Assembly: GCA_020057115.1 (NCBI GenBank)
Contig: JAGVGJ010000039.1
Coordinates: 52,806-116,805, forward strand
Length of the DNA: 64,000 nucleotides
From: Candidatus Omnitrophota bacterium
GTDB taxonomy: Bacteria; Omnitrophota; Gorgyraeia; 2-01-FULL-45-10
Reading direction: 5' to 3'
Shown: in pieces, positions 71 through 59,868 of the stretch
Numbering within the stretch: position 1 is the stretch's first letter
Layout of the letters: each line of letters begins with the position of its first letter
Made by a program: the position numbers and the translations under genes
Notes under the pieces: model-generated
Told to the model about the DNA's origin: nothing
The model's input: only the letters and a program-made list of their open reading frames with translations
Databases searched by the model: none

Positions 71-99
71 TATTTTGGGTATTTTAGTGTAATTAATAA

Positions 100-7427: not shown

Positions 7428-7458
7428 GGGACAAGGGGCCAGGGTCAAGGGTCCCAGG
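7428..7458 (+). repeat. G-tract repeat (4 G3-4 tracts) filling the asrB-like / hycB-like intergenic spacer and carrying the SD AGGTGA
   Basis: Sequence gggacaaggggccagggtcaagggtcccaggtg. Confidence 0.7.
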
Positions 7459-11009: not shown

Positions 11010-11011
11010 GG

Positions 11012-13341: not shown

Positions 13342-13342
13342 T

Positions 13343-13804: not shown

Positions 13805-13808
13805 GCCT

Positions 13809-14147
13809 GTGACAGCGTATATATTATGCCTTGTATTATTCTCGATAGGCCTTTACTGCGCCCTAAGGAAGAGGAACGTGGTCAAGATAATAATCGGGAT
13901 CGGCATCATGGAATATGCGGCGAATTTCCTATTCGTCTTGATAGGATACCGCTCCGGCGGCCGCTCGCCGATATATGCCAATGACCAGGTTATAAAGAGC
14001 ATGGTAGATCCGCTTCCGCAGGCCGTGGTGGCAGTAGCGATCGTGCTCAACCTGTCCGTGACGCTACTACTGGTCGCGATAGCGATAAAGCTTTATGAAA
14101 AGTACGGGACATTTGACATAACCAAGATAAATGACTTGAAGGGGTAA
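13809..14147 (+). CDS. MrpC/NuoK-like subunit (MbhG-like)
   Basis: 112 aa with three TM helices, NuoK-like. Confidence 0.7.
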   Translation: MTAYILCLVLFSIGLYCALRKRNVVKIIIGIGIMEYAANFLFVLIGYRSGGRSPIYANDQVIKSMVDPLPQAVVAVAIVLNLSVTLLLVAIAIKLYEKYGTFDITKINDLKG

Positions 14148-14156
14148 TAAAACAAC

Positions 14157-15653
14157 ATGGCTTTCATCCCATTCTTCATAGCGATACCTTTAGGAGCGGC
14201 ATTCTTGATCTCGCTTGCGGGAAAGAGGTTCAGGGCGTCTTCCGGCCCAATCGCGTGCGCGGCATCGCTCTTCCTCCTTGCGGCATCCCTCGCAATTGTG
14301 AAGCCGGTCCTGGCCCACAAGACGCTTGTATACAGGGTGGGGAACTGGCTTCCGCCGTTCGGCATACCCATGATAGTAGACAGCCTGACGGCGCTCATGC
14401 TCGTACTTGCCGGTATCGTCGTATTTTTTGTCACCATTTATTCTATAGGATATATGAAGCCATATACGGACAAGTGGAAGTATTATACCCTCCTCATGCT
14501 TCTGGTGGGAGGGTCTAACGGCGTTCTTCTGGCCGGCGACATATTTAATATGTTCGTCTTTCTCGAGATAGCGTCCATATCCGTATACGCGCTTGTCGCC
14601 TATGGTACCGAAAAACATTCTCTGGAAGGGGCATTCAAATATGCAGTAATGAGCTCCATAGGCTCGGTCTTCATATTTCTGGGTATAGCCATCCTCTATA
14701 GCTACACATCCACGCTTAACATGGCAGACATGGCCGCTGTCCTTATGCAGAAGGGGCCGGGAATGATAGTGCCTTTTGTCACGACCCTCTTCCTGGTCGG
14801 CTTCGGCCTCAAGGCGGGCCTCATGCCTTTCCACGCGTGGCTTCCGGACGCGTATTCCGCGGCTCCGGCGACGGTTCCGGCATTATCATCCGGAGTCCTG
14901 ATCAAGGTATTGGGGTTATACGCGATATCAAGGATCGTCTTCAACGTGTTCGGCATAAATGCCGAGGTCTCCAATATCCTCGTGATATTAGGTTCTCTGT
15001 CCATGGTAGGCGGAAGCATCCTCGCTTTCGGGCAGACGAAGATGAAGCGGCTCCTTGGGTATTCGAGCATCAGCCAGGTCGGATATATAGCTATCGGCCT
15101 GGGCGTCGGGACGCCGCTCGCGCTCTTCGGGAGCATATTCTATCTTTTGAACCACAGCCTTTCAAAGGCCCTCTTATTCTTAAGCGCCGGAGCGATCGAA
15201 CATTCGACGGGCACCGATGAGCTTGGATCTATAAGGGGAACCTGCAGGAGATCTCCGCTGGCCGGATGGGCCAGCCTTGTGGGCGCGCTATCCATAAGCG
15301 GCATACCGCCTCTCGGAGGATTCTGGGCGAAGCTCATTATAATATTCGCGTGCATACAGGCCGGAAGGCCGATGCTCGCATTCCTCATGGTGCTGGCAAG
15401 CATATTTACGCTCATCTATTATTTTAAAGCGTTTACCGGCGTCCTGTTCGGCTCTGAGTCAGAAAAGTCCAGGCCGTTCGAAAAGGCACTGTCGCCCCAT
15501 ATGGCCCTTGCGCTATTCTGCCTTACCGCTCTTGTGGTTGCCGCGGGGCTTGTGCTCCTTCCGGGGAAATGGCAGGCGCTTATTAACGGCGCGGTGGGCG
15601 TTCTTTCAGGCGGAAGGGATTACGCGATCATACTATTTGGAGCCATGAGATGA
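14157..15653 (+). CDS. Second MrpD/NuoN-like antiporter subunit of complex 1 (H'-like paralogue)
   Basis: 498 aa with FHAWLPDAYSAAPA and the SISQVGYI motif. Confidence 0.85.
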   Translation: MAFIPFFIAIPLGAAFLISLAGKRFRASSGPIACAASLFLLAASLAIVKPVLAHKTLVYRVGNWLPPFGIPMIVDSLTALMLVLAGIVVFFVTIYSIGYMKPYTDKWKYYTLLMLLVGGSNGVLLAGDIFNMFVFLEIASISVYALVAYGTEKHSLEGAFKYAVMSSIGSVFIFLGIAILYSYTSTLNMADMAAVLMQKGPGMIVPFVTTLFLVGFGLKAGLMPFHAWLPDAYSAAPATVPALSSGVLIKVLGLYAISRIVFNVFGINAEVSNILVILGSLSMVGGSILAFGQTKMKRLLGYSSISQVGYIAIGLGVGTPLALFGSIFYLLNHSLSKALLFLSAGAIEHSTGTDELGSIRGTCRRSPLAGWASLVGALSISGIPPLGGFWAKLIIIFACIQAGRPMLAFLMVLASIFTLIYYFKAFTGVLFGSESEKSRPFEKALSPHMALALFCLTALVVAAGLVLLPGKWQALINGAVGVLSGGRDYAIILFGAMR

Positions 15654-16150
15654 TGAAGAAGGCATTCCTGTTCATGCTTTGGTATCTGGTCTGGTGCCTT
15701 CTCGCATGGCCGCCAAGCATGCAGCACATGATAATAGGTATATTCGTAGCCTCGTTCGTGTCATTGATGACGAACGACATGTTCTCCGGAAAGCCGCTGG
15801 ATACCAGGTTGAATCCCGCCAGATATATGTGGTTCCTTTATTATGTAGCAGTGTTCGCATGGGAATGTTTCAAAGCGAATATAGACGTGGCGTACAGAGT
15901 GTTGCACCCGGACCTTCCGATAAAGCCCGGGACGATAAGGGTGAAGACAAGCCTTAAATCCGACGCCGGCCTCACTTTCCTGGCAAATTCGGTTACGCTT
16001 ACCCCGGGGACCACGAGCGTCGATATCGACAGGGATAAAGGTCTTATATATATTCACATGCTTTATATCAGCGACAGTTATGACAAGGATTCCATGAAGC
16101 TCAAAGTCGTAGACAAGTTCGAGAAGATATTGAGGAGGATATTCGAATGA
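15650..16150 (+). CDS. MrpE-like subunit (MbhA-like)
   Basis: 166 aa. The size, position in the Mrp module and hydrophobic N-terminus fit MnhE. Confidence 0.55.
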   Translation: MMKKAFLFMLWYLVWCLLAWPPSMQHMIIGIFVASFVSLMTNDMFSGKPLDTRLNPARYMWFLYYVAVFAWECFKANIDVAYRVLHPDLPIKPGTIRVKTSLKSDAGLTFLANSVTLTPGTTSVDIDRDKGLIYIHMLYISDSYDKDSMKLKVVDKFEKILRRIFE

Positions 16151-32751: not shown

Positions 32752-33204
32752 ATGAAGAGTCCGACATACGAAGGGTTGCAGTGCAAAATAAAGAAGTTAA
32801 ACACGCCGGAGATAGAGGTCTGGGAAAATAATTATCCGGAGCGGGATTATGTGATAGAGATAGATATCCCGGAATTTACCTGCATATGCCCCAAGACGGG
32901 ATTGCCGGATTTCGCGGATATAAAAATAAGATATATAGCCGATAAGCAGTGTATCGAGCTAAAGTCGCTCAAATACTACACTCTGTTTTACAGGGATGTG
33001 GGGATATTCAATGAAAACGTCGTAAATAAGTTCATGGATGACTTTGTGAAGGCTGTGAAGCCGCGCTGGGCCCAGATAACGGGCGTGTTCAACGCAAGAG
33101 GCGGGATAAAGACGACGGTTGTGGCTGAATATAAAAGGGGCAAGGGGCCAGGGTCTCCCGCCCATATGGTATCGAGGGGCGGGACAGGCGGGGTCCAGAG
33201 ATAA
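32752..33204 (+). CDS. queF: NADPH-dependent 7-cyano-7-deazaguanine reductase with an unusual Gly/Pro-rich C-terminal tail
   Basis: FTCICPKTGLPDFA and E.KSLKYY motifs. The last ~25 aa (GKGPGSPAHMVSRGGTGGVQR) are encoded by the G-repeat at 33137-33198. Confidence 0.85.
   Translation: MKSPTYEGLQCKIKKLNTPEIEVWENNYPERDYVIEIDIPEFTCICPKTGLPDFADIKIRYIADKQCIELKSLKYYTLFYRDVGIFNENVVNKFMDDFVKAVKPRWAQITGVFNARGGIKTTVVAEYKRGKGPGSPAHMVSRGGTGGVQR
33137..33198 (+). repeat. Extended G-tract repeat at the queF 3' end, just upstream of the fumarase alpha start
   Basis: Sequence ggggcaaggggccagggtctcccgcccatatggtatcgaggggcgggacaggcggggtcc, with six or more G3-4 tracts. Confidence 0.7.
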
Positions 33205-41663: not shown

Positions 41664-41691
41664 TTGACTTAACTATCACTTGTGATATAAT
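41664..41691 (+). promoter_or_regulatory. Strong sigma70-like promoter with an extended -10, driving the giant gene
   Basis: ttgact (41664-41669), a 16-nt spacer, then TGaTATAAT (41683-41691). The promoter lies in an AT-rich divergent region. Confidence 0.5.
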
Positions 41692-41734: not shown

Positions 41735-44700
41735 ATGCGAAACACTATTTGGTTCAAAACAATCTGCATGCTTTTGGCGGCGGCGTTTTTGTCTTTAGAT
41801 GTCGCCTGGGCATACCCGCCTGACCGGATGGAGCCTTCCAGGCATAACCTTGCGCCAGAGTCGATATTCGGCGAGAGAGTGATGACTGATGGCACCAGGG
41901 CGCGCAAGGCCGATCTGCTCAAAGAGGAGGAATTAGCCGGATGCGTGATGAGCGTAGCCGTCCTCTTGTTCCGCGACCGCACGCCCGTAACTCGCCTGGA
42001 AACTACGCTTAGCCCCGAGTTTAAGAAGTCCATTGACGGCATAGACCTTTCGAAAGTCACTGCAGCTACCATAAAAGACAATAAGCTTGATCTCATCCCT
42101 CTGGAAGATGACAGGCTGATACCCAAAGACCAGATAGCGGGCATCCCCTACAAGAAAGACGGTAAATATTATTATATTCAAATAACGCCAAAAGGCAGCC
42201 CTGTCGCAGGGCGGCTTATCGGAAAGGCGTGGCCTATATCAGATATGTATGAGATAAGCGTATATGCCCCTGACGCATTGGTCACTATGCCTGTCAGGAG
42301 CACTGACGCCGGTATTGTGGAAACCGCAGAAGAGGTCGCGAGATCTCCGGAAGCTGTTATTCCGCCATCCATGGCTCCTCCGAGCGCGCCTACCGTTAAG
42401 ATGCCGGAAGCCTCCAGAAATCCGCCAGGCACTACATCATACTCGTTCACTTTCCCGGCCGCGCTGGCATTCTTGGTCCCGATCTTTGAAACAGCCAAAA
42501 ATTTTATAGCGGAGCATCCTTTCATTTCGGCTGGGGCCGGAATTGCCGCAGGAGCTGTTGTAGGGATGCTCGCATATCGTAAATTTTTGCGCATGAAAAG
42601 ATTCGCCGCCGGATCCTTCAGTAATGAAAAAGAGGCCGCTCTTACGCAGATATTTGATGACCTCGCGGATGTGGAAGATAAGACAAACAATGTAACAGGA
42701 GACAAAAAGAGAGTAGAGGCAAAAGAAAAAACAGCCGTTGTCATCGGAGCCGGGAGGATAGGACGCGGCCTGATAGGCAAGCTCCTCAATGATTCCGGTT
42801 ACAAAATAACATTTGTCAACAGGAGCTCCGGAATAGTCGATGCTTTAAATAGAGACGGCGGTTATAACCTTCAGATAGTGGGAAATGACGGGAGCGTGAT
42901 ATCCAGGCGCATAGGCAACGTGATCGCCATAGCAAAGTCAGATACAAACGGCGTAACCAATGCTATCTATGATACAGATACGGTGTTCCTCGCCGTATTC
43001 GACCAGGATTTTGATGACGTCTCTTCCGTGATAGCTAAAGGAATAGAGAATAGGCTGGCGGGAGGCGTGAGGCGGCCTATCAACGTCATAGTCGTCTCGA
43101 ACAGGTTCTCCGCGAAACACGTTGTAAGGGATGCCATATTGCGTCATGTCTCGCCCATGATGAGGACCGATGCGGACGCGCTCCTGGGGGTCGTTGATAC
43201 GGCGACATTCGATATAATACCCGGGATCCCGGACTTATTGGCCGAAAAAGACCCGAGCCTGATACAAGTATACAGCGACATGCATCTGTTTGCGGATAAT
43301 AGCGGATTCAGGGGAGAGCTTTTAAGGTTAAAAGGCATCGATATGACCGATAATATCAAGGATATAAAACTCAGGAAGCTATTCGTATATAACGGCGCGC
43401 ACGCGATATGCGCGTACCTCGGGTATCTTAAGAGGTACGAATATATACAGGAGGCGATAAATGATCCGGCCATAAGAGGCGTTGTGGGAGCCGCTTTCGA
43501 AGAGATGAGGGGCCTTTTGGGAGAGTGGCCTGATTATGATGAGTTTACCAGGTTTGTTATCGCAAGACTTGCCGATAAAAGGTTCAATGACAAACTCGAG
43601 AGAGTCGCAAAGGACCCTATAAGAAAACTGTCAAGTTACGACCGTCTCGTAAGCCCGGCTCTATTGGCCATTAAAAATAACAAAACCCCGCACGCTTATG
43701 CCATGGGCATAGCCGCGGCGCTTCTCTATGATGACCCGGCAGACGAAGAGGCCGTAAAGATGCAGGCAAGACTCGCTGAAGAAGGCGGCATTGGCAAGGT
43801 CATAAGCGAGATATGCGGTCTCCGGTCGCAATATAAAGATGAGTTTGTTCTCATCGATCTCATCAGAACGAAGATCGCCATAGCCCGCAGAGAGAAGGCA
43901 AAGGCAGAGCTTGCAAAATCTATGAAGGCCGGAATATTTGATGAAGATAATTATGACAAGGTGGTGCACGTCTTGGGCAAGGTGCCTAAAAATGTCAAGC
44001 TTGTAGTATGGGACTTTGACAATGTCATAGGCAATACGCAGAAGCTCTATGCCGAGGCGACAGCCATAGTCTATTGGAAGATAAGAAAAGGCATCAAAGA
44101 AGCGGACGCTATTCCCGAAGATAATGATCCTGTATATCGGAAAGGAAAAGACCTCTATAACCAATTTTTGGCCGAAGGCCCGGCTACTTTCCGCACCATA
44201 CAGAAAGCTATCGAAGAGGTGAAGTCGGAAAAGGAGCTTGCGTCCGGCCTGCTTCCCGAAGCTGAATATTACAAACAGTTCGAGGCGATAAGAGAGGCCA
44301 TGTTCAGCGTGCTCGACCCATCAGACTTTTTTAATCCCAGGATGAGAGAGCTATTGTGTATCGTAAGGGCGCTCAATCCAGACGTAGAATTTTGCGTGAA
44401 TACGGCTCTTGAAAAGAGTTTCTTTGAGCGGCAGTTCATGAGGCCCGGATTCAGGGGTTACTTCACTTCCGCCAAAGCGCTCAGCGTAGAGCAGAGGAAT
44501 GCCGGGAATATAGAGGAGGCGAAAGCGCGTAATCTGATGGTGCTGCTCCAGGAGAAAGGCGTCAAGCCCGAAGAGACCGTAGTCATAGATGATTCGAGCA
44601 GGTTCATGAATACGGTGAGGATGAGAGCTCCTGATATATTCAGGATAGGGGTCGCCACAGATATCAGGTTCGGCAAGAACCTTATCGATAAGGAAGTCAA

Positions 44701-48406: not shown

Positions 48407-48499
48407 GATGTCTTCTAGTATAGTTATGCTAGAAGACATTTTATTTTTACTATACGGGCCTCTTTGATTAGAAGGCATATTATAGAGGCCCTGTTTTTT
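48407..48499 (+). terminator. Two tandem terminator-like hairpins in the hppA leader; a possible ~100-nt sRNA or attenuator
   Basis: Hairpin 1 is atgtcttctag/ctagaagacat (48407-48438) followed by tttatttttact. Hairpin 2 is gggcctct/agaggccc (48455-48490) followed by tgttttttt. Confidence 0.5.
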
Positions 48500-48522: not shown

Positions 48523-50847
48523 ATGGTTTACGGACTCACATTGTTCGAGCAGGTCGCCATATGGAGCGTCTTGGGAATAGCGCTGCTAGGTCTTCTTTAC
48601 GCCCTATTCCTGCGCAAGCAGATACTTGCGGAAGATAAGGGGACTGCCAAGATGCAGGAGGTTTGGAATGCCATCCGCGAAGGCGCAGACGCCTACCTTA
48701 AGAAACAGCTAGTCTCCATCCTTCCCTTGATAGGCATACTCACATTTGCTCTATTCTTCTCAGTTTATATAGTTCCGCCTTCCCAGGAGGCCATGCAGAG
48801 GTTCGCCGGCCACTCCACAGACCAGGTGCGCCTTATTATAGGTATAGGAAGAGCCATTGCATTCATCATGGGCGCCATATTCTCACTGCTGGTCGGCCAG
48901 CTTGGCATGAGGATGGCTGTCCAGGCCAATGTCCGCGTTGCTTCAGCATCAAAAAGGTCTTTTGGGGATGCGCTGCGCATAGCCTACCGCGCGGGTACGA
49001 TCACAGGCATGTTGACTGACGGCCTGGGACTCTTCGGCGGCACCATCATATTCATAATATTCGGCATAGCTGCTCCTGATGCCCTTCTCGGTTTCGGTTT
49101 CGGCGGAACACTCTTAGCGCTCTTCATGAGGGTGGGCGGCGGTATCTTCACAAAGGCAGCTGACGTAGGCGCTGACCTCGTGGGTAAGGTCGAGGCAGGC
49201 ATACCCGAAGATGATCCGCGTAACCCGGCGGTTATAGCGGACCTTGTCGGTGACAATGTCGGCGACTGCGCAGGTATGGCAGCTGACATATTCGAATCAT
49301 ACGAAGTCACGATCGTTTCCGCCTTGATACTGGGGCTTGCGCTATACCACATCACCCATAGGCTGGAGTGGATAGTCTATCCGCTACTTGTCCGCGGCAT
49401 AGGCGTCATCTGCTCTATTATAGGTACTTATGCGGTCAGGAGCAGCCCTTCCAAGAGCGGCAATGCCATGGTCGCCATCTTTAAAGGCTTCCTGACATCG
49501 GCGGTTATTTCGATAGCTATGTTCGGCGTGCTTGCATTCTTCTATATGAAGAACACGCCGGGCGGATGGTGGAGACCGTTCCTTGCCACTACTGTCGGCG
49601 TATTATTGGCCATCATGATAGACCGCCTTACCGAATATTTCACCGGCACGCACGGAAGGCCTGTCCGTGAGATAAGAAAGTCCACCAATACAGGCGCTGC
49701 TACGACGATACTTTCAGGTCTTGCGGTGGGCCTCGAGTCTTCCGTATGGTCCATACTTGTTATTGCCGGCACGATATTCTCTTCGATATTGATATTTGGG
49801 ACTATGTCAGGGGTGAGCGGCGTAGACAGGGTTGCATACATCCTTTACGGCGTTGCGATGACCGGTATCGGCATGTTGACGCTGACAGGCAACAACGTCG
49901 CGATGGACTCATTCGGTCCCATAGCCGATAATGCTAACGGCATAGGCGAGATGGCATGGCACGGCCAGACTGACAAAGATACTAAGGATGCCCGCCAGAT
50001 CATGGCTGACCTGGACGGCGTAGGCAATACCACGAAGGCCATTACAAAGGGGGTCGCCATAGGCTCGGCCGTTATAGCTGCAGTTTCGCTATTTGGCGCA
50101 TATATGGTCGATGTCTCAAAAGTCCAGGCGGCTATGGGCGTTGCGGCGGCCGACCAGCTTAGTGCTGTCGGTATCCGCGTATCAGTTCCTCAAGTTTTCG
50201 TCGGCATGCTTATCGGCGGGGCGCTTCCGTGGTTATTCTCCTCTTTCTGCATACAGGCTGTCAGCCGCGCTGCTTCATTAATAGTGGAAGAGGTCCGCCG
50301 CCAGTTCAAGATGGGCGTCCTGGAGGGCAAAGTGAAGCCTGATTATAAACAGGCCGTTGCTATTTCCACTACCGCCGCCCAGAAAGAGCTTATAAGCCTT
50401 GCGGCGATGAGCGTCATTGCTCCGATACTCGTAGGGCTCGTTCTTCAGGTAGAGGCGCTAGGCGGATTCCTTGCAGGCATAATCCTTTCAGGCCAGCTCT
50501 TAGCGGTATTCATGTCAAATGCGGGCGGCGCGTGGGATAATGCGAAAAAGACGATCGAGGATGAACCTCGCGATACAGCCAAAAATACAGGCAAGGGTTC
50601 GGAGCGCCATAAGGCAAGCGTTGTCGGTGATACCGTTGGAGATCCGCTAAAGGATACAGCGGGCCCGGCATTGAATCCAATGATCAAGGTTGTAAACCTT
50701 GTATCGGTCATCATAGCTCCGATAGTCGTTCAGTATAACAAACTAGGTCTAGGCGGATGGCTCGTAGTCGCAGGGCTTTCGGCTGCGATGGTGTGGGCTA
50801 TAATGCATTCCAAGAAGCCGACGCCTGAATTAGCGCCGGTAAAGTAG
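48523..50847 (+). CDS. hppA: Membrane-bound H+/Na+-translocating pyrophosphatase (V-PPase)
   Basis: 774 aa, polytopic. Signature motifs GGIFTKAADVGADLVGKVE, DNVGDCAGMAAD and GDTVGDPLKDTAGPALN. SD aaggag lies 10 nt upstream. Confidence 0.95.
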   Translation: MVYGLTLFEQVAIWSVLGIALLGLLYALFLRKQILAEDKGTAKMQEVWNAIREGADAYLKKQLVSILPLIGILTFALFFSVYIVPPSQEAMQRFAGHSTDQVRLIIGIGRAIAFIMGAIFSLLVGQLGMRMAVQANVRVASASKRSFGDALRIAYRAGTITGMLTDGLGLFGGTIIFIIFGIAAPDALLGFGFGGTLLALFMRVGGGIFTKAADVGADLVGKVEAGIPEDDPRNPAVIADLVGDNVGDCAGMAADIFESYEVTIVSALILGLALYHITHRLEWIVYPLLVRGIGVICSIIGTYAVRSSPSKSGNAMVAIFKGFLTSAVISIAMFGVLAFFYMKNTPGGWWRPFLATTVGVLLAIMIDRLTEYFTGTHGRPVREIRKSTNTGAATTILSGLAVGLESSVWSILVIAGTIFSSILIFGTMSGVSGVDRVAYILYGVAMTGIGMLTLTGNNVAMDSFGPIADNANGIGEMAWHGQTDKDTKDARQIMADLDGVGNTTKAITKGVAIGSAVIAAVSLFGAYMVDVSKVQAAMGVAAADQLSAVGIRVSVPQVFVGMLIGGALPWLFSSFCIQAVSRAASLIVEEVRRQFKMGVLEGKVKPDYKQAVAISTTAAQKELISLAAMSVIAPILVGLVLQVEALGGFLAGIILSGQLLAVFMSNAGGAWDNAKKTIEDEPRDTAKNTGKGSERHKASVVGDTVGDPLKDTAGPALNPMIKVVNLVSVIIAPIVVQYNKLGLGGWLVVAGLSAAMVWAIMHSKKPTPELAPVK

Positions 50848-50863
50848 AGAGATATTTACCACG

Positions 50864-50911
50864 CTGTCATTGCGAGGAGCGAACGAAGTGAGCGACGAAG
50901 CAATCTATCAA
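50864..50911 (+). repeat. Bipartite repeat copy A, upstream boundary of the hydrogenase-2 operon
   Basis: Conserved flanks ctgtcattgcgagg ... gaagcaatctatcaa around a variable core (gagcgaacgaagtgagcgac). Copy B is at 60739-60778. Confidence 0.6.
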
Positions 50912-50916
50912 CTATC

Positions 50917-52353
50917 ATGAAGAATATGATCCTTTTGTCAGCCATATTCGTTCCGGTAATAGGTTCATTTATATTGCCTGTTATCGGAAAGATCTCTGAG
51001 CGCGCGAGAAATGGTCTCGCGCTCTGTTTTGTCCTCGTATCTTTAGTCGGATCATCACTCCTGATACCGTCTGTCCTGGCAGGCAATGCCGTTACATTCT
51101 CAAGAGCCCTGCCGGTAGGGTTCAATATGGTATTTACCGCAGACTCGCTTGCGGTATTCATGGCTATCTGTTCTTCTTTAGTGGGCGCCGTCATAGTACT
51201 GTTCTCGTTCGGTTATATAAGCCATTATGAGAACAGGAACGAATATTACCTTATGGTCGTGCTGTTCCTGGGCGCCATGATGGGGATCATATTTTCGGCC
51301 AACCTTATATGCATGTTCCTCTTCTGGGAGATAACGGCGATAGCGAGCTGGAGGCTGATAGGTTTCTTCAGGGGCAAGAACGACGTCTTGAAGGCGGACA
51401 AAGCGTTCCTTGTGACAGTATTCGGAGCGCTCGTCATGCTGCTGGGTTTTGTGCTCATCGCTCAACAGGCGGGATCGTTCGACCTCTCGGTTATAAAAGA
51501 GACATTTAAGGCAAGCCCCGTACCCGATATAGCGGTCCTGCTGATACTTATCGGCATACTCACGAAATCAGCCACATTGCCTTTCCACACATGGCTTCCG
51601 GACGCCGGCGTGGCGCCATCGCCTGTCACCGCACTCCTGCACGCCGCAGTCTTAGTCAAGATAGGCGTCTATGTATTCGCAAGGTTATTCATAGTGACAT
51701 TCACCTTTAGCCAGATGTGGCATGTGATAGTGCCGTGGATCGCCGCCTCCAGCGCTCTCGTATCGGCAGGCGCAGCGCTCATCGACACCGACTTAAAGAG
51801 GATCATAGCTTATTCTACGGTGAGCCAGATAGCTTTTATATTCCTTGGCCTTGCGATAGGCGGGCCGCTCGGGGTCGCGGGAGCGATGCTCTACATATTG
51901 ATGCATGGTATCGCCAAGGGCGGGCTATTCCTTTGCGCCGGCATAATCGAGCAGAACACGCACACGAAAGATATCACGAAGATGGGGGGGCTTGTCGCGA
52001 CGATGCCTGTCACGGCAGTGGCTTTCTTGTTCTGCGCCTTCTCAGTCATGGGCATCCCGCCGTTCGGAGGATTCTTCTCAAAGTATATGGTCATGTCGAG
52101 CGTTTTCACAAGCGGGCAAATGGCCCTGGCGTTGACATTTTTAGTCGGAGCGTTCCTGACGATACTCTACATGTTCAGGTTGTTTAATATGATATTTATG
52201 GGCGACGCTCAAGGCGCTCCTGCAAAAGAGGGGAGCCGGGTCATGGTCGTGTCTGTCGCGATACTCGGCGCCTTATCATTGCTTGGCGGATTATATATAA
52301 TCTATCCTTCAAATTATGTGCAGATAGCCGTAAAACAGATGCTCGGGATGTAA
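50917..52353 (+). CDS. MrpD/NuoN-like antiporter subunit (complex 2)
   Basis: 478 aa with FHTWLPDAGVAPSP and TVSQIAFI motifs. Confidence 0.85.
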   Translation: MKNMILLSAIFVPVIGSFILPVIGKISERARNGLALCFVLVSLVGSSLLIPSVLAGNAVTFSRALPVGFNMVFTADSLAVFMAICSSLVGAVIVLFSFGYISHYENRNEYYLMVVLFLGAMMGIIFSANLICMFLFWEITAIASWRLIGFFRGKNDVLKADKAFLVTVFGALVMLLGFVLIAQQAGSFDLSVIKETFKASPVPDIAVLLILIGILTKSATLPFHTWLPDAGVAPSPVTALLHAAVLVKIGVYVFARLFIVTFTFSQMWHVIVPWIAASSALVSAGAALIDTDLKRIIAYSTVSQIAFIFLGLAIGGPLGVAGAMLYILMHGIAKGGLFLCAGIIEQNTHTKDITKMGGLVATMPVTAVAFLFCAFSVMGIPPFGGFFSKYMVMSSVFTSGQMALALTFLVGAFLTILYMFRLFNMIFMGDAQGAPAKEGSRVMVVSVAILGALSLLGGLYIIYPSNYVQIAVKQMLGM

Positions 52354-52354
52354 G

Positions 52355-54175
52355 ATGAGACCAGAGATATTATTATTACCTATATTGATACCGTTCGCCT
52401 CAGGGGTGCTGGCGTTATTCACCTCCCGTAAGTACCGCGGCATGGTTGCCCTTATAGCCGCAGCCATGAATCTGGCGCTAGCCTGTTTCCTGTTCAAGGC
52501 CAACGTCATATTTACAGCTCCCTGGGCGGGTTTTGGTTTCGAGTTCATCTTAAGGGCATACCAGTTCTCAGGTTTTATAATCGGCGCCGCGGCATGTTTC
52601 GCGATACTCATTACCTTATACTGCACCGTATTCCTGAAGGAGAAGGCGTTCTCCAACCAGTTTTACGCGTACCTTTTGATATCCATAGCCATGCTGAACG
52701 GGGCTGTCCTGGCGGACAACCTGGTGGCCATGCTCTTCTTCTGGGAAGGCATGCTCCTGACGCTCTTCGGCCTCATCGCCATAGGAAGGCCCGGCGCATT
52801 CAAGACCGCTACGAAAGCCTTCGTGATCGTCGGCATATGCGACCTCTGCATGATGGCAGGGATAGCCCTCTCAGGCCATCTCGCCGGCACGCTCACGATC
52901 TCCAAAATAAGCCTTGATATAACCGGGCTCGGAGGGCTGGCGTTCATCCTCCTCATGATAGGCGCGATATCCAAGGCAGGCTCGATGCCATTCCACAGCT
53001 GGATACCGGATGCCGCGCTCGACGCGCCGCTTCCGTTCATGGCCATATTCCCGGGAGCTTTGGAAAAACTTATAGGGATATATTTCCTGACGAGGATATC
53101 GCTCGACATGTTTAAACTCGACCCTCATTCGTGGGTAAGCATGGTGATGATGATAGTCGGCTCCCTCACAATAGTGCTTGCCGTATCGATGGCGCTCATC
53201 CAGAAAGATTACAAGAGACTCCTCTCTTATCACGCCATAAGCCAGGTAGGATATATGATACTGGGCATAGGCACTCTCGTGCCGGCCGGCATAATCGGCG
53301 GGCTATTCCACATGCTCAATAATGCCATATACAAATCCTGCCTGTTCCTGACCGGCGGAGCGGTGGAGAAAGAGACGGGCACTACAGACCTTAAGAAGTT
53401 GGGGGGCTTGTGGAAGAAGATGCCGGTCACGTTCGCGTGTTTTGCTGTCGCGGCAGTTTCAATATCCGGCGTTCCGCCTTTCAACGGTTTCTTCTCGAAA
53501 GAGCTCGTCTACGACGGCGCTTTAGAGAGGGGAATGATATTCTATATTGCGGCGCTTTTAGGATCATTCCTTACGGCGGCGTCATTCTTAAAGCTCGGGC
53601 ATGCGGCATACCTGGGAAAGATATCTAAAGAGAATGAACGAGCGAAAGAGGCGCCCATTCAGATGCTTCTTCCCATGATAGTGATCGCGTCTTTTTGCAT
53701 CATCTTCGGCCTCTGGAATACGCTGCCCATACAGAAGCTGATACAGCCGATACTCGGCGAGAGGCTGGAGGGGCATAATTACGGAGGCTTCCCGACCAAT
53801 ATGATGCTTGTGATAGCGACGGTGGCAGTGCTATTGGCGGCGCTCATAAACCATATCTTCGGCGTGAAAAAGTCGGGCTCAGGCCTGGGCGCAGTTGACC
53901 ACATACATCATGCGCCCGTACTTTCCGGCATATACGATAAAGCAGAGAAGAGGCTCTTCGATCCTTATGCAATAGGCCTCAAGATAGTTGACGTAGTGTC
54001 GAAGATAGCCTGGTCGGTCGACAGGGGGATAGACTGGGTCTATAACGTATTTTTTGTGGATGCGGCGTTTGCCGTATCAAATGGCATAAGGAGCCTGCAC
54101 AACGGAAGCTACGCCGCGTATCTTGCGTGGTCGCTTGCGGGCGCGGGTCTAGTGATAATATTTTTGATGAGATAG
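52355..54175 (+). CDS. MrpA/NuoL-like antiporter subunit (MbhH-like, complex 2)
   Basis: 606 aa with FHSWIPDAALDAP and AISQVGYMILG motifs, and an extended C-terminus. Confidence 0.85.
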   Translation: MRPEILLLPILIPFASGVLALFTSRKYRGMVALIAAAMNLALACFLFKANVIFTAPWAGFGFEFILRAYQFSGFIIGAAACFAILITLYCTVFLKEKAFSNQFYAYLLISIAMLNGAVLADNLVAMLFFWEGMLLTLFGLIAIGRPGAFKTATKAFVIVGICDLCMMAGIALSGHLAGTLTISKISLDITGLGGLAFILLMIGAISKAGSMPFHSWIPDAALDAPLPFMAIFPGALEKLIGIYFLTRISLDMFKLDPHSWVSMVMMIVGSLTIVLAVSMALIQKDYKRLLSYHAISQVGYMILGIGTLVPAGIIGGLFHMLNNAIYKSCLFLTGGAVEKETGTTDLKKLGGLWKKMPVTFACFAVAAVSISGVPPFNGFFSKELVYDGALERGMIFYIAALLGSFLTAASFLKLGHAAYLGKISKENERAKEAPIQMLLPMIVIASFCIIFGLWNTLPIQKLIQPILGERLEGHNYGGFPTNMMLVIATVAVLLAALINHIFGVKKSGSGLGAVDHIHHAPVLSGIYDKAEKRLFDPYAIGLKIVDVVSKIAWSVDRGIDWVYNVFFVDAAFAVSNGIRSLHNGSYAAYLAWSLAGAGLVIIFLMR

Positions 54176-54185
54176 GAGACAATAA

Positions 54186-55616
54186 GTGCCGGCATTGTTT
54201 TTCTTAATACCGCTTATCGGAGTGATAACGCTGAACCTGCCGTTCAGAAAGCTGATGAAGAAGACGGCGTTCTGGTTTGCCGCGGTTCTTTTTATCTTTC
54301 AAATAGTCCTCGTCTCATCTCATCGCACAAGTTTCTGGGGGACGGGGCTAGTCCAGGGTTCCTTCTTTAACGTCAATTTTTACGTCGATCATCTAACCCT
54401 CATAATGCTTTTCTCTATCAGCATAGTTTCTCTTGCCAGCCTCCTTGTGGCCCGCGCCATGATATCCGACGAGAATAAGAGGTTTAATTTTATAAACTTG
54501 CTGATAACCGCCGCCATCGGCATGAACGGCATCGTGATGGTGAAGGACATATTCTCATTGTACGTTTTCCTCGAAGTCGCGGCCGTATCGGCGTTCATCA
54601 TGATAACCATAAATAAAGACAAGCCGGCCCTTGAAGGGGCGTTCAAATATATATTGCTCTCGGCGATAGCGACGATAATGATGCTCTCGTCGATAGGCTT
54701 ATTGCTATTGATCGCAGGCGACACTTCTTTTGGCGCGATAAGCGCGGCCATATCCTCTTCTCCACAGAGCATGCTGGTCAAGCTTGCCATGGCGATATTC
54801 CTGTGCGGGCTGTTCATAAAGGGCGGCCTCATCCCGTTCCACGGCTGGCTTCCGGACGCATACTCCGCGGCCGCAGCGCCGGCGTCAGTGCTCCTGGCAG
54901 GCATAGTTACCAAGGTATCAGGCATATATACCCTTATAAGGATAGTGACGTCACTATTCGGCTTTACCCCGGCCGTTTCAAAAGTACTCCTTCTTATCGG
55001 AGCCGCCTCAATAGTCATCGGCGCTTTTGCGGCGTTAGGGCAAAAAGATCTTAAAAGGATGCTGGCCTATTCAAGCATAAGCCAGGTGGGATACATAATA
55101 ATAGGTTTTGGCACGGGCTCAGTGCTTGGCGTAACCGGAGCGGTCTTCCATCTGTTTAACCATGCCATATTTAAATCTCTTCTCTTCGTAAATGCAGCCG
55201 CGGTTGAGAAAGAGGCTGGAACGGTAGATATGGATAGATTGGGAGGATTATCCCAGACGATGCCTATAACGGGGACGACATCCGCGATAGCGTTTCTGTC
55301 GACATCAGGCATACCGCCTCTTGCCGGGTTCTGGTCAAAGGTCATAATAATAATCGCGCTCTGGCAGGCGGGATATATAGCTTATGCGGCAGTTGCGGTC
55401 CTGACGAGCGTCCTGACCGCGGCATATCTTATTACGATGCAGAGGAAGGCATTCTTTGGCAATATCGCCCCAGGCTTGGAAAGGACTAAAGAGGCTCCTC
55501 TGGCCATATGCGTCGCTTCGATAATACTTGCGGCAGTTACGGTAGGCGTCGGCGTATTCTTCCCGTTCGTCTTTAATAATTTTATTATGCCTGTAAAAGA
55601 AATATTGATAAAATGA
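54186..55616 (+). CDS. MrpD/NuoN-like antiporter subunit (complex 2), source-like copy of the antisense relic at 42254-42312
   Basis: 476 aa with a GTG start. FHGWLPDAYSAAAAPASVLLAGIVTKVSGIYTLIRI. Confidence 0.85.
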   Translation: MPALFFLIPLIGVITLNLPFRKLMKKTAFWFAAVLFIFQIVLVSSHRTSFWGTGLVQGSFFNVNFYVDHLTLIMLFSISIVSLASLLVARAMISDENKRFNFINLLITAAIGMNGIVMVKDIFSLYVFLEVAAVSAFIMITINKDKPALEGAFKYILLSAIATIMMLSSIGLLLLIAGDTSFGAISAAISSSPQSMLVKLAMAIFLCGLFIKGGLIPFHGWLPDAYSAAAAPASVLLAGIVTKVSGIYTLIRIVTSLFGFTPAVSKVLLLIGAASIVIGAFAALGQKDLKRMLAYSSISQVGYIIIGFGTGSVLGVTGAVFHLFNHAIFKSLLFVNAAAVEKEAGTVDMDRLGGLSQTMPITGTTSAIAFLSTSGIPPLAGFWSKVIIIIALWQAGYIAYAAVAVLTSVLTAAYLITMQRKAFFGNIAPGLERTKEAPLAICVASIILAAVTVGVGVFFPFVFNNFIMPVKEILIK

Positions 55617-56107
55617 CCATCGATCTTATATTGCTCGTAATGATGACGATCGCGGCCCTCTGGGCCGTAATGGCGCGCAGCCTGTTAAAAGCGGCCATCG
55701 CGCTTGCTGTCACAAGCGCCGTAGTCACGATAATCATGTTCCGCCTCGCCTCGCCGCTTGCGGCAGTATTCGAGCTCTCCGTCTGCACGGGCCTCATAAC
55801 GGCGATATTTGTCAGCGCCATAAGCCTGACCAGGCCGCTTACCCACGCGCAGACGATAGCGATGTCAAAGAATAAGTTCAGGAGGTATTGGTATCTCCCG
55901 GTCATCATGGTCATCGCGGCCGCGGCGCTATTTCTCCTTAAGATCAAGGTCGATGTGCCGCTTCCTCAAGTTCTGGCTATCGACGATGTCCGCAATATCA
56001 TGTGGAACTTAAGGCAGCTCGACATGTACGGCCAGATAGTGCTCATCCTTGCGGGTTCGTTCGGCATAGTGATACTTTTTAGAGAGAGCGACAAAGATGG
56101 AAGCTAA
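55613..56107 (+). CDS. MnhB-domain membrane subunit (MbhD/E-like)
   Basis: 164 aa hydrophobic protein, in the same position as the MnhB-domain subunit in complex 1. Confidence 0.55.
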   Translation: MTIDLILLVMMTIAALWAVMARSLLKAAIALAVTSAVVTIIMFRLASPLAAVFELSVCTGLITAIFVSAISLTRPLTHAQTIAMSKNKFRRYWYLPVIMVIAAAALFLLKIKVDVPLPQVLAIDDVRNIMWNLRQLDMYGQIVLILAGSFGIVILFRESDKDGS

Positions 56108-56417
56108 TAACATACAATTATTCTCGATATTCGGCATATTTATCGTGATGCTCTTCATCGCGGGCCTTTACTGCATATTGATGACGCGTAACATGATGAG
56201 GGCGCTTATAGGCCTTGAGATATTGACCAAGGCTGTCACCGTCCTTCTTATATTGGCAGGATATGTGACCGGCAACATGGCCTTCGCCCAATCGATAGTA
56301 ATAACGCTCATCATCATAGAAGTCGTGGTCATCGCCATAACGGCAGGCGTGATATTAAGCATATACAGGCATACCAATTCATTGGACAGAAGCACTATCA
56401 GGGACTTAAAAGGTTAA
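56097..56417 (+). CDS. MrpC/NuoK-like subunit
   Basis: 106 aa with three TM helices. Confidence 0.65.
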   Translation: MEANNIQLFSIFGIFIVMLFIAGLYCILMTRNMMRALIGLEILTKAVTVLLILAGYVTGNMAFAQSIVITLIIIEVVVIAITAGVILSIYRHTNSLDRSTIRDLKG

Positions 56418-56420
56418 TAT

Positions 56421-56756
56421 ATGAATAATATGCTGCTTTCACCACCTATAGCTTTTTCGATACTTCTTGTTGTCATGCTCGTGATCTCAGGGCTATTGTC
56501 AAAGCTTTCTTATAAGAGGAAGGACTCCCCGGGCGCGGTAGGGGAGTCATATGCCTGCGGCGAAGATAATTACAGCACATTCGTCCAGCCGGACTATACG
56601 CAGTTCTTCCCATTCGCATTTTTCTTTACCATACTTCACGTTGTGGCGCTTATCATAGCGACCGTGCCGAAACAGACGATCCAGGCTTTTGCCATAGCCG
56701 TGGTCTATATAATCGGCGCCGTTATAGGGTTATTTATACTTTTCAGGAAGGATTAA
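56421..56756 (+). CDS. NuoA/MbhI-like small membrane subunit
   Basis: SYACGE (NuoA/ND3 E-C-G motif) between TM helices. Confidence 0.6.
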   Translation: MNNMLLSPPIAFSILLVVMLVISGLLSKLSYKRKDSPGAVGESYACGEDNYSTFVQPDYTQFFPFAFFFTILHVVALIIATVPKQTIQAFAIAVVYIIGAVIGLFILFRKD

Positions 56757-56758
56757 AG

Positions 56759-57232
56759 ATGGGCCTGGTTCGAAAGATAGTGACATGGGCAAGGATAAAG
56801 TCGCCGTGGATCATCCACTTTAATACAGGCGCGTGCAATGCCTGCGACATAGAGATAGTTGCCGCGCTTACTCCGCGTTATGATCTGGAGAGGTTCGGCA
56901 TCCAGCTTAAAGGCACGCCACGCCACGCAGATGTGCTCGTATGCTCCGGCCCTGTCACGAAGCAGATCACGCCCAGGTTGAAACGCATATATGAGCAGAT
57001 GCCCGAGCCGAAGTTCGTAGTGGCGGTAGGCACCTGCTCCTGCTCAGGCGGAGTATTCCAGGGATGTTATAATGTCGAGTCTGGGATCGACGAGGTCCTT
57101 CCGGTATCAGCCTATATACCCGGATGCCCTGCGAGCCCGAAGGCGATAATAGACGGCGTGACGAAACTTTTAATGAGTCTCGAGGATAAAGAAGGGTCCA
57201 GGATCCAGGGTCCAGGGTCCGGAAAAAAATAG
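56759..57232 (+). CDS. Group-4 [NiFe]-hydrogenase small subunit (NuoB/MbhJ-like, complex 2)
   Basis: CNACDIE, GTPRHADV, GTCSCSGG and GCPASP motifs. The C-terminal tail KEGSRIQGPGSGKK is encoded by the G-repeat. Confidence 0.9.
   Translation: MGLVRKIVTWARIKSPWIIHFNTGACNACDIEIVAALTPRYDLERFGIQLKGTPRHADVLVCSGPVTKQITPRLKRIYEQMPEPKFVVAVGTCSCSGGVFQGCYNVESGIDEVLPVSAYIPGCPASPKAIIDGVTKLLMSLEDKEGSRIQGPGSGKK
57194..57222 (+). repeat. G-tract repeat at the small-subunit / NuoC-like junction
   Basis: Sequence gggtccaggatccagggtccagggtccgg. Confidence 0.7.
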
Positions 57233-57237
57233 ATCAA

Positions 57238-57711
57238 ATGACAAGTGAAGAGAATATACAGGAAGGGCTACTGAAGAAGTTCGCTTTCCTCGATGGCAAT
57301 ATAAAAGTCCAGAGGGCGAGGAGGATCTTCGGCATTGTCGATCACGGTAAATTTAGAGAAGTTTTCGAATCCCTCATAAAGGACTTCGGATTTACGCTTC
57401 TTTGCACGATCACCGGCTTTGACGAGGGGGAAGTGTTCAGCCTGATGTACCACATGGCGAGGCCCGACGGAATAGTCTTGAGCATAAAGACGAGCGCTCC
57501 AAAAGATAAGCCGATATTCAAGACCGTTACCGCCTATTTCCCGGATGCGGAGATATATGAAAGGGAAGTCGTGGGCCTGTTCGGGGTGACTGTCGAGGGC
57601 CTTGGGCCCGGAAACAGCTATCCGCTCCCGGATGATTGGCCGAAAGGACAATATCCATTACGCAAAGATTGGAAACCGGCACCAAAGAAGGGTGAGGTGA
57701 AAGATGCATAA
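57238..57711 (+). CDS. NuoC/MbhK-like subunit (complex 2)
   Basis: 157 aa with EREV.GLFG and PDDWPKGQYPLRKDW. Confidence 0.85.
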   Translation: MTSEENIQEGLLKKFAFLDGNIKVQRARRIFGIVDHGKFREVFESLIKDFGFTLLCTITGFDEGEVFSLMYHMARPDGIVLSIKTSAPKDKPIFKTVTAYFPDAEIYEREVVGLFGVTVEGLGPGNSYPLPDDWPKGQYPLRKDWKPAPKKGEVKDA

Positions 57712-58927
57712 AGTCATTATACCCATAGGTCCTCAACACCCGGCACTCAAAGAACCTGAGAGCTTCAGGATCCAGCTAAGCGGCGAGAGGATAACAGGTT
57801 TCAGCGTAAAGCTCGGCTATAACCATCGCGGCATAGAGAAGGCCTGCGAGGAGAGGACGTATCTGCAGGATGTTTATTTGACAGAGCGTATCTGCGGCAT
57901 CTGCTCGCATGCCCATTCGACGGCTTTTACGCAGGCGGTTGAAGAGATAGCGGCTCTGGCCGTGCCGAAAAGGGCCCTTTACATAAGGACGCTTATAGGC
58001 GAGCTTGAAAGGATACACAGCCATCTATTATGGCTCGGCGTCGCGGGGCATGAGATAGGTTTTGATACGCTCCTCATGTACACCTGGCGCGACCGCGAGG
58101 TCGTGATGGATATCCTTGCTACGACAACAGGCAACCGCGTAAATTACGGCATCAATACCATCGGCGGGGTAAGGCGCGACATCTCCCTGGCTCAGGTGAA
58201 AGATATCCTTAAGGCTGTCGATATCCTCGAGGAGAGGACCAAATACTATATAGACATCTCCACAAAAGAGACGACCATGATAAAGCGCCTTTCAGGCGTA
58301 GGCGTGCTCTCCCATAAAGATGCCGTGAGGCTGGGGGCAGTAGGCCCGACAGGCCGAGCGTCAGGCGTAGACAGGGATGTCCGGCGCGACGATCCTTACG
58401 CGGCTTACGGCGAGCTCGATTTCAATGTAATAACAGACGATCATTGCGATGTTTACGGCCGGGCTGTCGTGCGCTTAAAAGAGCTCATGGAGTCCTATAG
58501 ATTGATAAGGCAGATATTAAAGAACATGCCCGAAGGGCCTATTGCAGTAAAGGCTCCGCGCAAGATACCTGCGGGCGAGGCAGTGAGCCGTTATGAAGCC
58601 CCCAGAGGCGAAGATGTTCATTATGTGAAGTCAAACGGCACTGACAAGCCCGAGAGAGTAAAGGTAAGGGCCCCGACGTTGGCTAATGTCCAGACGGTCG
58701 CCAAGATGCTTGAGGACGGACAACTCGCGGACCTTCCGATAGTGATAGCGGCCATAGATCCCTGCTTCTCCTGCACCGACAGGCTTATATCGATAAAAGA
58801 TACGAAATCAAAGAAGACGAATATCCTCATGTGGGATGACCTGCATAGTTACAGCGTCAAGTGGTATCGCGACAAGGGGATAGATTTTACGAAGCTGAAC
58901 AGAAAACTTCAAGGAAAGATGAGCTGA
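57704..58927 (+). CDS. Group-4 [NiFe]-hydrogenase large subunit (MbhL/EchE-type, canonical)
   Basis: RICGICSHAH (L1) and DPCFSCTDR (L2), with a 46-aa C-terminal extension after the Arg. Confidence 0.9.
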   Translation: MHKVIIPIGPQHPALKEPESFRIQLSGERITGFSVKLGYNHRGIEKACEERTYLQDVYLTERICGICSHAHSTAFTQAVEEIAALAVPKRALYIRTLIGELERIHSHLLWLGVAGHEIGFDTLLMYTWRDREVVMDILATTTGNRVNYGINTIGGVRRDISLAQVKDILKAVDILEERTKYYIDISTKETTMIKRLSGVGVLSHKDAVRLGAVGPTGRASGVDRDVRRDDPYAAYGELDFNVITDDHCDVYGRAVVRLKELMESYRLIRQILKNMPEGPIAVKAPRKIPAGEAVSRYEAPRGEDVHYVKSNGTDKPERVKVRAPTLANVQTVAKMLEDGQLADLPIVIAAIDPCFSCTDRLISIKDTKSKKTNILMWDDLHSYSVKWYRDKGIDFTKLNRKLQGKMS

Positions 58928-59868
58928 TGATAGCAGCATTCTTTAATCTTTTGATATTTCCAGGGTTCCTCTTTCTGGCGATATTCGGCCTGGCGGCTGA
59001 ATATATCGATAGGATAATATACGCAAGGCTCCAGAACAGGATGGGGCCGCCATGGTTCCAGCCGCTCGCCGACCTTATAAAGCTCATCGCCAAAGAAGAC
59101 GTGATACCTTGCGAGGCAAATCCCAGGATGTTCAAGATGATGCCTATACTTGCCCTGACAGCGGCCGTTACGGCATCTTTCTATATTCCGCTATGGGGTG
59201 AAAGGGCGCTCTTCAGTTTTAATGGCGACTTGGTCGTGGTCTTATACCTCTTAACTATACCGACGCTCACGTTCTTCCTGGGGGGATGGTATTCGACATC
59301 GCTTTTTTCAAAGATCGGGGCGATGCGCGCCATCACGCAGCTATTCGCGTACGAGGTCCCGTTATTTATATGCATACTGGCCCCGGCACTCCTTGCGAAT
59401 ACATGGTCCTTGAGCGAGATGGCGGCCTTTTACGCGGCGCACCCGTTTTACTGGACATTCAATCTTATAGGCTTCGGGGTCGCTTTAATAGCCATGCTCG
59501 GAAAACTGGAGAAGGTGCCCTTTGACATACCTGAAGCCGAGACGGAGATCGTGGCCGGGACATTCACCGAATACAGCGGCAAGCTTCTCGGATTCTTCAA
59601 GCTCGCCATAGACGTAGAGGCCGTGGTAGGCGCATCGCTTTTAGCGGCGGTATTTTTACCGTTCGGCTATGGCATAGGTTCTTATTTGGGATTTGTCATA
59701 TATGTCGCGAAGGTATTATTTATAATATGCCTATTAGCGCTTTCCAGGACGATATTCGCGCGCTTGAGGATCGACCAGATGATGGAGTTCTGCTGGAAAT
59801 ACGTGGCGCCGCTCGCCTTCGTGCAGCTCGTGATAGATCTGGCGCTTAAGGGAGTTCTCATAAGATGA
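58927..59868 (+). CDS. NuoH/MbhM-like membrane subunit (complex 2)
   Basis: The likely start is MIAAFFNLLIF (the ORF is listed from 58861). Motif RLQNRMGPPW. Confidence 0.85.
   Translation: MIAAFFNLLIFPGFLFLAIFGLAAEYIDRIIYARLQNRMGPPWFQPLADLIKLIAKEDVIPCEANPRMFKMMPILALTAAVTASFYIPLWGERALFSFNGDLVVVLYLLTIPTLTFFLGGWYSTSLFSKIGAMRAITQLFAYEVPLFICILAPALLANTWSLSEMAAFYAAHPFYWTFNLIGFGVALIAMLGKLEKVPFDIPEAETEIVAGTFTEYSGKLLGFFKLAIDVEAVVGASLLAAVFLPFGYGIGSYLGFVIYVAKVLFIICLLALSRTIFARLRIDQMMEFCWKYVAPLAFVQLVIDLALKGVLIR

Follow-up and report, generated by a model that had tools for sequence, protein, structure and literature searches.

Short-patch double illegitimate recombination, or SPDIR, generates microindels of 3 to ~100 bp when single-stranded DNA (ssDNA), which may come from inside or outside the genome, pairs through simple or extended microhomologies at the replication fork and is incorporated like an Okazaki primer, and the process is suppressed by RecA, DprA and ssDNA exonucleases (10.1101/2023.11.22.568220; 10.1101/2024.07.02.601687). 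According to the authors who described it, reports from other organisms are scarce (10.1101/2023.11.22.568220). The locus considered here lies in a 64,000 nt stretch of DNA from a Candidatus Omnitrophota bacterium (GenBank assembly GCA_020057115.1, contig JAGVGJ010000039.1, positions 52,806 to 116,805), referred to below as the window. In it, the 5′ part of a gene predicting a protein of 2197 aa (the giant gene) contains a block of 59 nt whose reverse complement matches an internal segment of an MrpD-like antiporter subunit gene located 12.6 kb away. With a probability of about 0.7, this block is a microhomology-bounded templated microindel that is now a neutral part of a protein linker. Coordinates of the features are collected in Table 1.

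As in SPDIR, the patch is short and heterologous, its donor is ectopic, both joints show microhomology and flanking homology is lacking, and SPDIR allows the donor to be inside or outside the genome. However, the cases known so far were mostly obtained by selection with mutants of Acinetobacter baylyi in the laboratory, whereas the event described here appears to be old and fixed in a wild, uncultivated lineage, is ~12% diverged, and has an ancestral recipient that is deduced from an orthologue. Classical bacterial template-switch mutations involve tens of bases within quasipalindromes. Replication template switching (fork stalling and template switching/microhomology-mediated break-induced replication, FoSTeS/MMBIR, and bacterial quasipalindrome switches) likewise produces an inverted, microhomology-bounded copy of nearby sequence in the same strand context, but the distance here is 12.6 kb rather than tens of bases, and the sequence alone fits SPDIR equally well. 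There is also a likeness to antisense overprinting and de novo coding, as ~15 codons of the giant gene are the antisense of a segment coding for a transmembrane helix, with third codon positions coinciding. The difference is that the two readings are found at different loci, one being a copy of the other, and that only a linker has been extended and no new gene formed.

Taken as reverse complement, positions 42254-42312 form an ungapped alignment with 54879-54937 of the MrpD-like gene, in which 50 of the 59 nt are identical (84.7%). The first 29 nt of the reverse-complemented block form the best-matching stretch (28/29), and the longest exact run in the alignment is 18 nt. The match has a blastn E-value of 1.3e-12 with a 1.7-kb query and of 4.8e-11 in a self-comparison of the whole window, where it ranks third among the non-self matches. 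All other strong non-self matches link paralogous genes of the two Mrp-like clusters in the window, with the exception of the one produced by an intergenic inverted repeat at 144-382. An earlier note on this DNA had drawn attention to the near-identity between the minus strand of 42254-42312 and the MrpD-like gene; the match and the recipient coordinates stand, but the donor segment is 8 nt away from the position given there (54871-54929). The same note had described weaker similarity extending ~70 nt to each side, and this is not borne out. Identity on the same diagonal is at background level at both edges of the block (mostly 0-7 matches per 15-nt block), leaving sharp edges, and when flanks of 60-300 nt were aligned locally with gaps, their scores were no higher than those of shuffled sequences. 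The sole hint of similarity comes from the 60-nt upstream flank, where the observed score was reached by 29 of 500 shuffles. Because an older and longer insert would show uniformly diverged flanks, the sharp edges argue that the transferred piece was truly short. Among the antiporter paralogues in the window, only 54186-55616 matches, and the block has no match in the other Proton_antipo_M genes (14157-15653, 50917-52353, 52355-54175 and 11012-12823).

As the earlier note had stated, the giant ORF stays open over the block, where its translation is ISVYAPDALVTMPVRSTDAG, and the antisense translation of the mrpD-like gene itself gives IRVYMPDTLVTMPARSTDA. A full-length search with the giant protein found three relatives. 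P0001 corresponds to the NCBI deposit of this very protein, with an annotation 18 codons shorter; P0002, with 53% identity, was found in the Logan assemblies L001-L003; and P0003, with 45% identity, belongs to a Candidatus Omnitrophica metagenome-assembled genome (L004). The relatives share the N-terminal residues of the giant protein, as described below, but nothing resembling the antiporter-like patch is present at that position in P0002 or P0003. The closest orthologue has GTAAGGGTGAATTCCGGCGGC there, and the pairwise alignment with P0002 opens a 14-residue gap precisely at the patch.

The junctions were compared codon by codon between the window, L001, L004 and the donor. The insert-free L001 reads GAA GTA AGG GTG AAT TCC GGC GGC TAT GAA (E V R V N S G G Y E), and the window reads GAG ATA AGC GTA TAT GCC CCT GAC GCA TTG GTC ACT ATG CCT GTC AGG AGC ACT GAC GCC GGT ATT GTG GAA. 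The reverse complement of the donor includes ..CTT ATA AGG GTA TAT ATG CCT GAT ACC TTG GTA ACT ATG CCT GCC AGG AGC ACT GAC GCC GGC GCT... At the left edge, L001 and the donor share TAAGGGT, and at the right edge they share CCGGCG, longer than the CCGG common to all three, which in L001 starts 5 bases past TAAGGGT. Since the patch-free L001 resembles the donor at exactly both edges, the bases at these edges were probably already present in the ancestral giant gene and would have served as annealing points. We infer that the L001 junction stands for the ancestral state. The left-junction codons (I/V-R/S-V), in the last β-strand of the N-terminal domain (N-domain), are probably ancestral giant-gene sequence. 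Only the 47 nt between the two microhomologies match the donor alone, and they stand where the orthologue has ~5 nt (GAATT), so that the net gain is 42 nt (14 codons), equal to the alignment gap. The combination of TAAGGGT followed by CCGGCG within 100 nt occurs once in the window, at the donor, although this is a post hoc count that carries little weight. One of the three antisense frames of the donor is without a stop codon, and the patch sits in that open frame.

Residues I174-Y177 are within the last β-strand of the conserved N-domain, for which AlphaFold2 places a strand at 172-177. The start of the patch coincides with the end of the homologous N-domain in the family alignments and with a drop in the predicted local distance difference test score (pLDDT), which is 70-85 over residues 59-180 and <50 from 181 to ~258. 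The model was built from a 3-sequence alignment and is poor overall (mean pLDDT 50), and it was used for the boundary between domain and linker alone. The linker is rich in Pro, Ala and Ser, varies in length and sequence among the orthologues, and is followed by a glycine-zipper transmembrane region. A GC-rich hairpin (GCCCTG-CGA-CAGGGC) is also present inside the giant gene at 42198-42212, ~40 nt upstream of the patch; that it stalled replication and so favoured an illegitimate event is speculation.

By our reading, the donor segment corresponds to the conserved lysine-bearing transmembrane helix of the antiporter-like subunit. The closest mrpD orthologue, in L005 from JGI 3300036761, shares 92% amino acid and 90.4% nucleotide identity with that of the window and 55 of the 59 positions of the block, and the orthologues in L006-L008 share 77% amino acid identity and 43 of the 59 positions. 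The named MrpD homologues are annotated as Candidatus Omnitrophica, like P0003. The PASVLLAGIVTKVSGIYTL motif is retained in the MrpD orthologues despite many synonymous differences, and the giant-gene orthologues have no counterpart, for which reasons the motif is ancestral in mrpD and the giant gene carries the copy. These comparisons show the direction of copying, from the mrpD-like gene to the giant gene. By our count, the copy agrees at 52 of 59 positions with the donor state reconstructed with L005 as outgroup, and the donor would have belonged to this orthologous lineage, whether it was the mrpD of this genome itself or of a near relative. The proposed source is this genome or a relative less than ~10% diverged from it.

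The nine differences between block and donor were polarised with L005 as outgroup. Seven are private to the giant-gene copy, and the other two, at block positions 30 and 45, are synonymous and confined to the mrpD of the window, the giant-gene copy having the L005 state at both. The private changes in the copy amount to 12% (7/59). At 4-fold degenerate sites, mrpD of the window and of L005 differ by 21.7%, or ~11% per lineage. Five of the seven private changes are non-synonymous in the giant frame by our count, approximately the neutral expectation. The copy would thus have drifted at a roughly neutral rate since about the time when the window and L005 lineages split.

In the molecular pathway that we infer for the insertion, a single-stranded copy of ~55-60 nt from the MrpD-like gene would have paired in inverted orientation with two sites of the giant gene, TAAGGGT, where the last β-strand of the N-domain ends, and CCGG(CG), five bases on. 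Incorporation of this copy into the nascent strand would have swapped ~5 nt for 47 nt and added 14 codons. The patch may have persisted because it landed in a variable linker that is modelled as unstructured, and in the sole stop-free antisense frame of the donor. A replicative double template switch is an alternative route that would leave the same scar. The microhomology model expects an insert-free junction resembling TAAGGGTGAATTCCGGCG. As to the features by which SPDIR is recognised, a patch of 47 nt replacing ~5 nt falls within the range of 3 to ~100 bp, the ectopic donor is identifiable at 54879-54937, and microhomology is present at both joints (TAAGGGT and CCGGCG), with the recipient represented by a 53%-identical orthologue. 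Beyond the block the flanks are at background level, which marks an illegitimate event and not homologous recombination.

Several points weigh against this reading. The ancestral junction is deduced from an orthologue that is only 53% identical in protein, and no closer relatives of the giant gene were found in two scans of genome_contigs and two of metagenome_contigs, which makes the evidence from the microhomologies indirect. Exact-protein look-ups of the giant protein, P0001 and the H+-pyrophosphatase encoded nearby also found no closer relative, and a look-up of the neighbouring tetratricopeptide repeat protein led to a 1.7-kb JGI contig (L009) that, by our coordinate mapping, ends near position 41778 of the window, short of the block. 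The sequence is carried by one assembly only (1 contig). The donor search covered the 64-kb window, and a closer paralogue of the donor could lie outside it. The joints may be explained by SPDIR, by a template switch at the fork or by filler DNA at a repaired break, the last of which we consider less likely because the microhomologies are 6-7 nt. Finally, the private changes cluster near the N-domain, with 1 in the first 29 nt vs 6 in the last 30 (one-sided binomial p ~0.07), for which chance, adaptation at the edge of the domain and constraint acting on the opposite half are all possible reasons.

By homology, the giant ORF is coding from the ATG at 41735, contrary to the suggestion in the earlier note that its N-terminus is non-coding and that the true start lies downstream. 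The signal peptide MRNTIWFKTICMLLAAAFLSLDVAWAYP and the residues up to ~176 are common to P0001, P0002 and P0003, and aa 1-176 match the P0002 and P0003 loci with tblastn E-values of 4e-66 and 3e-30, respectively. An exhaustive HMMER search with aa 1-240 recovered 77 representative clusters, mostly the N-termini of proteins of 1000-5000 aa, with alignments that usually stop at query residues 173-181. A first protein search with aa 1-340 gave no matches, which is read as a failure of word-index sensitivity and does not imply that the protein is an orphan. Upstream of the ATG, the AT-rich intergenic region contains a promoter-like site. As deposited at NCBI, the protein (P0001, 2179 aa) begins with a TTG at 41789, 18 codons downstream of the ATG, so that most of the conserved signal peptide is lost, and the orthologues support ATG 41735 over TTG 41789 as the probable start.

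An alternative is that the block is the best-kept remnant of a larger inverted MrpD-like fragment or pseudogene, that the 5′ third of the giant ORF is spurious, and that translation starts near the Rossmann domain. Such a remnant would agree with the 203-aa ORF on the minus strand, with the empty first search with aa 1-340, and with six-frame log-odds of codon usage over 42170-42470, where the giant frame scores ~0 and the minus frame up to ~0.3 bits/codon. This is very unlikely given that aa 1-176 have conserved counterparts in both orthologues as well as in 77 representative clusters, that a promoter-like site precedes the ATG, and that the minus ORF has no PF00361 signal at E≤10, resembles MrpD over only ~20 aa and meets a stop codon in L001. 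The dip in codon score can be ascribed to the Pro/Ala/Ser-rich linker and to the shared third codon positions, and because the plus-frame protein is conserved it is no evidence for a minus-strand gene. The earlier idea that a gene fragment had been captured and overprinted as coding sequence is supported, but at a much smaller scale, the foreign part being ~47 nt without diverged flanks of ~70 nt. An origin by assembly or amplification, through a chimeric join or an inverted template switch of the kind seen in multiple displacement amplification (MDA), is highly improbable. Microhomology-bounded inverted chimeras are typical of phi29 amplification, and the block has that shape and is held by a single assembly. 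However, an artefact would equal its source, and such a chimera is excluded because the copy carries nine differences, two of them at positions with the state of the independent orthologue L005 and not that of the mrpD in the window. The longest exact run of 18 nt is by our reckoning too short to mislead a k-mer assembler, and the insert is in frame with continuous giant-gene sequence on both sides. Chance resemblance or convergence of two coding sequences, for which nothing but the shortness of the match speaks, is vanishingly improbable with an E-value of 4.8e-11 in the whole-window self-comparison, near-identity over 28 of 29 consecutive bases, and unrelated sequence at this position in the giant-gene orthologues.

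Another possibility is that the block has a role as RNA, with the mRNA of the giant gene pairing in trans with the mrpD-like mRNA through 29 continuous base pairs within an imperfect duplex of 59 nt, and stability or translation of the two being coupled, for example by RNase III cleavage. The duplex of the 59-mers has a predicted energy of -89 kcal/mol, and the first 29 positions pair continuously with a single G.U, exceeding the ~20 bp of complementarity between two transcripts that is looked for in trans pairing. Both genes are on the plus strand and, because of the terminator-like hairpin at 48408-48439, are probably transcribed separately; the half of the block that has diverged least (1 private change in 29 nt) also shows the best pairing. 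However, the block finds no match in L001-L004, the loci of the giant-gene orthologues, so that the pairing is not conserved, and the overall divergence of the copy is that expected under neutrality. G.U wobbles result from 3 of the 5 transition differences by our count, where ~50% would be expected without selection, and the clustering of changes is not significant (p ~0.07 by our estimate). Pairing as the explanation of the block is therefore very unlikely, and it is likewise very unlikely that an mRNA-mRNA antisense link, born from a templated microindel, has kept the near-perfect 29-nt half. If true, the link would couple a membrane-anchored multi-enzyme protein to an Mrp/Mbx-like energy-converting complex encoded 12.6 kb away. 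We conclude that the patch has no function of its own, and that a minus-strand gene, a pseudogene or a regulatory role is without support.

The minus-strand ORF over the block is judged not to be a gene. Neither its 203 aa nor the C-terminal part of 120 aa matches a Pfam family at E≤10, and BLASTP aligns only 20 aa with the MrpD-like protein. What the minus strand carries is a recognisable piece of 19-20 aa of the conserved helix, PASVLLTGIVTNASGAYTL, in which the conserved lysine has been lost (K to N). The ORF differs from a true MrpD/NuoN (PF00361) pseudogene fragment in having no profile match and nothing past the motif. A minus-strand MrpD/NuoN gene or pseudogene was ruled out on the absence of a Proton_antipo_M match, the confinement of similarity to ~20 aa and the random flanks. 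An antisense overlapping gene was ruled out as the matching frame in L001 runs into a stop codon at 1213, within the aligned positions 1464-907, and the plus frame scores 216 bits vs 74 for the minus frame. By our inspection, the minus ORF and the giant gene have coinciding third codon positions, which keeps the former open.

Three further identities were rejected. The nine mismatches (G/A, T/G, G/T, T/C, A/G, C/G, A/G, T/C and C/G) are not adenine-specific, which rules out the template-repeat/variable-repeat (TR/VR) pair of a diversity-generating retroelement (DGR). A miniature inverted-repeat transposable element (MITE) or a repetitive extragenic palindromic (REP)-like repeat was ruled out as the sequence is present in two copies in the window (n=2), one of them the conserved coding motif of the donor, and the core pattern of the block has no exact match in genome_contigs or viral_contigs. 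The absence of an exact match to the core in viral_contigs also ruled out a phage origin.

Table 1. Features of the giant gene, the donor gene and the copied block. Positions are those of the window unless given as amino acids (aa) of the giant protein.
Feature	Position	Strand	Basis or remarks
Promoter-like site, TTGACT-16 nt-TATAAT with TG extension	41664..41691	+	11/12 consensus matches; 44 nt upstream of ATG 41735
Recipient giant gene, 2197 aa	41735..48328	+	ORF list, Pfam, orthologue alignment, AlphaFold2
Signal peptide of giant protein			
N-domain	aa ~27-177		
Variable linker	aa 178-235		
Glycine-zipper transmembrane region	aa ~236-285		
Mannitol-dehydrogenase-like region	aa 333-677		
HAD-like match	aa 754-954		Weak
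PRK-type kinase-like region	aa 1654-1834		
Antisense ORF with MrpD-like motif, 203 aa	42178..42789	-	Judged not a gene
59-nt block	42254..42312	+	Codons I174-G193 of giant gene; reverse complement matches MrpD-like gene
Left junction microhomology	42255..42261	+	TAAGCGT in window, TAAGGGT in donor reverse complement and L001; dG -5.95 kcal/mol (nearest-neighbour)
Patch matching the donor only, 47 nt	42262..42308	+	Encodes YAPDALVTMPVRSTD(A) at start of linker; junction comparison, 14-residue orthologue gap
Right junction microhomology	42309..42312	+	CCGG in window, donor reverse complement and L001; dG -8.28 kcal/mol for CCGGCG
Hairpin then T-run, likely terminator	48408..48439	+	3′ of giant-gene stop codon
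MrpD-like (Proton_antipo_M) donor gene	54186..55616	+	PF00361, E 3.5e-67
Donor segment	54879..54937	+	Encodes PASVLLAGIVTKVSGIYTL(I); inside PF00361 match (residues 120-411)

The first 177 aa of the giant protein (41735-42265) comprise the signal peptide and a domain of ~150 aa that has no Pfam match, yet forms the N-terminal module of the 77 clusters. The family consensus at the end of this domain is 'W.ISDKYV.K.LPEDY', and the module may be shared by large proteins in this lineage, probably Omnitrophota, for export or anchoring. Pfam identifies aa 333-677 as a mannitol-dehydrogenase-like Rossmann domain with its C-terminal domain. The fusion of domains is unusual, with a long matchless region between the HAD-like match and the PRK/uridine-kinase-like P-loop domain, and a C-terminal region after the latter. 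It is kept end to end in only two other proteins known from the search, P0002 and P0003.

The donor gene is the third antiporter-like subunit gene of its cluster (48523-59868), which is preceded by an H+-pyrophosphatase gene (48523-50847). The genes after the antiporter subunits predict MbhD-, NuoB-, NuoC-, NuoD/NiFe- and NuoH-like proteins, and in this predicted composition the cluster resembles a group-4 hydrogenase or Mbx complex. A paralogous cluster is located at 9337-16150, both clusters pairing Mrp antiporter-like with complex-I-like or hydrogenase-like subunits, and nucleotide similarity between their paralogues reaches 71-82% in short conserved stretches.

Other repeats are present in the window. 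Tandem heptamers of the form (AGGGKCC)n, with 2-5 copies, occur at six sites, 706-736 (-), 1514-1537 (-), 3311-3341 (+), 7434-7450 (+), 33136-33152 (+) and 57193-57216 (+), and a search with the pattern gave 12 overlapping matches vs 0 expected in shuffles. At least three of these sites lie at the very 3′-end of an ORF (453-1547, 2237-3355 and the NuoB-like 56759-57232), where they give rise to tails rich in Gly, Pro, Trp and Gln. Since the repeat length of 7 is not divisible by 3, gaining or losing copies would alter the reading frame. The intergenic inverted repeat mentioned above is 67 nt long, with arms at 144-206 and 319-382 that are 85% identical, and brackets ~110 nt upstream of ORF 453-1547.

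SPDIR and template-switch microindels are known mainly from selection experiments, and the block would be a natural example whose age has allowed it to become fixed and to drift. The DNA of an uncultivated lineage here gives all three elements of such an event, namely the donor, the mutated gene and an insert-free orthologue that stands in for the recipient. For annotation, the case warns that neither a mis-called start nor an overlapping gene has to be assumed when a conserved motif is matched on the strand opposite a long ORF. The block leaves the known function of both genes unchanged, and what it suggests for the evolution of such proteins is that a templated microindel can lengthen a protein linker by reusing the antisense of an unrelated gene.

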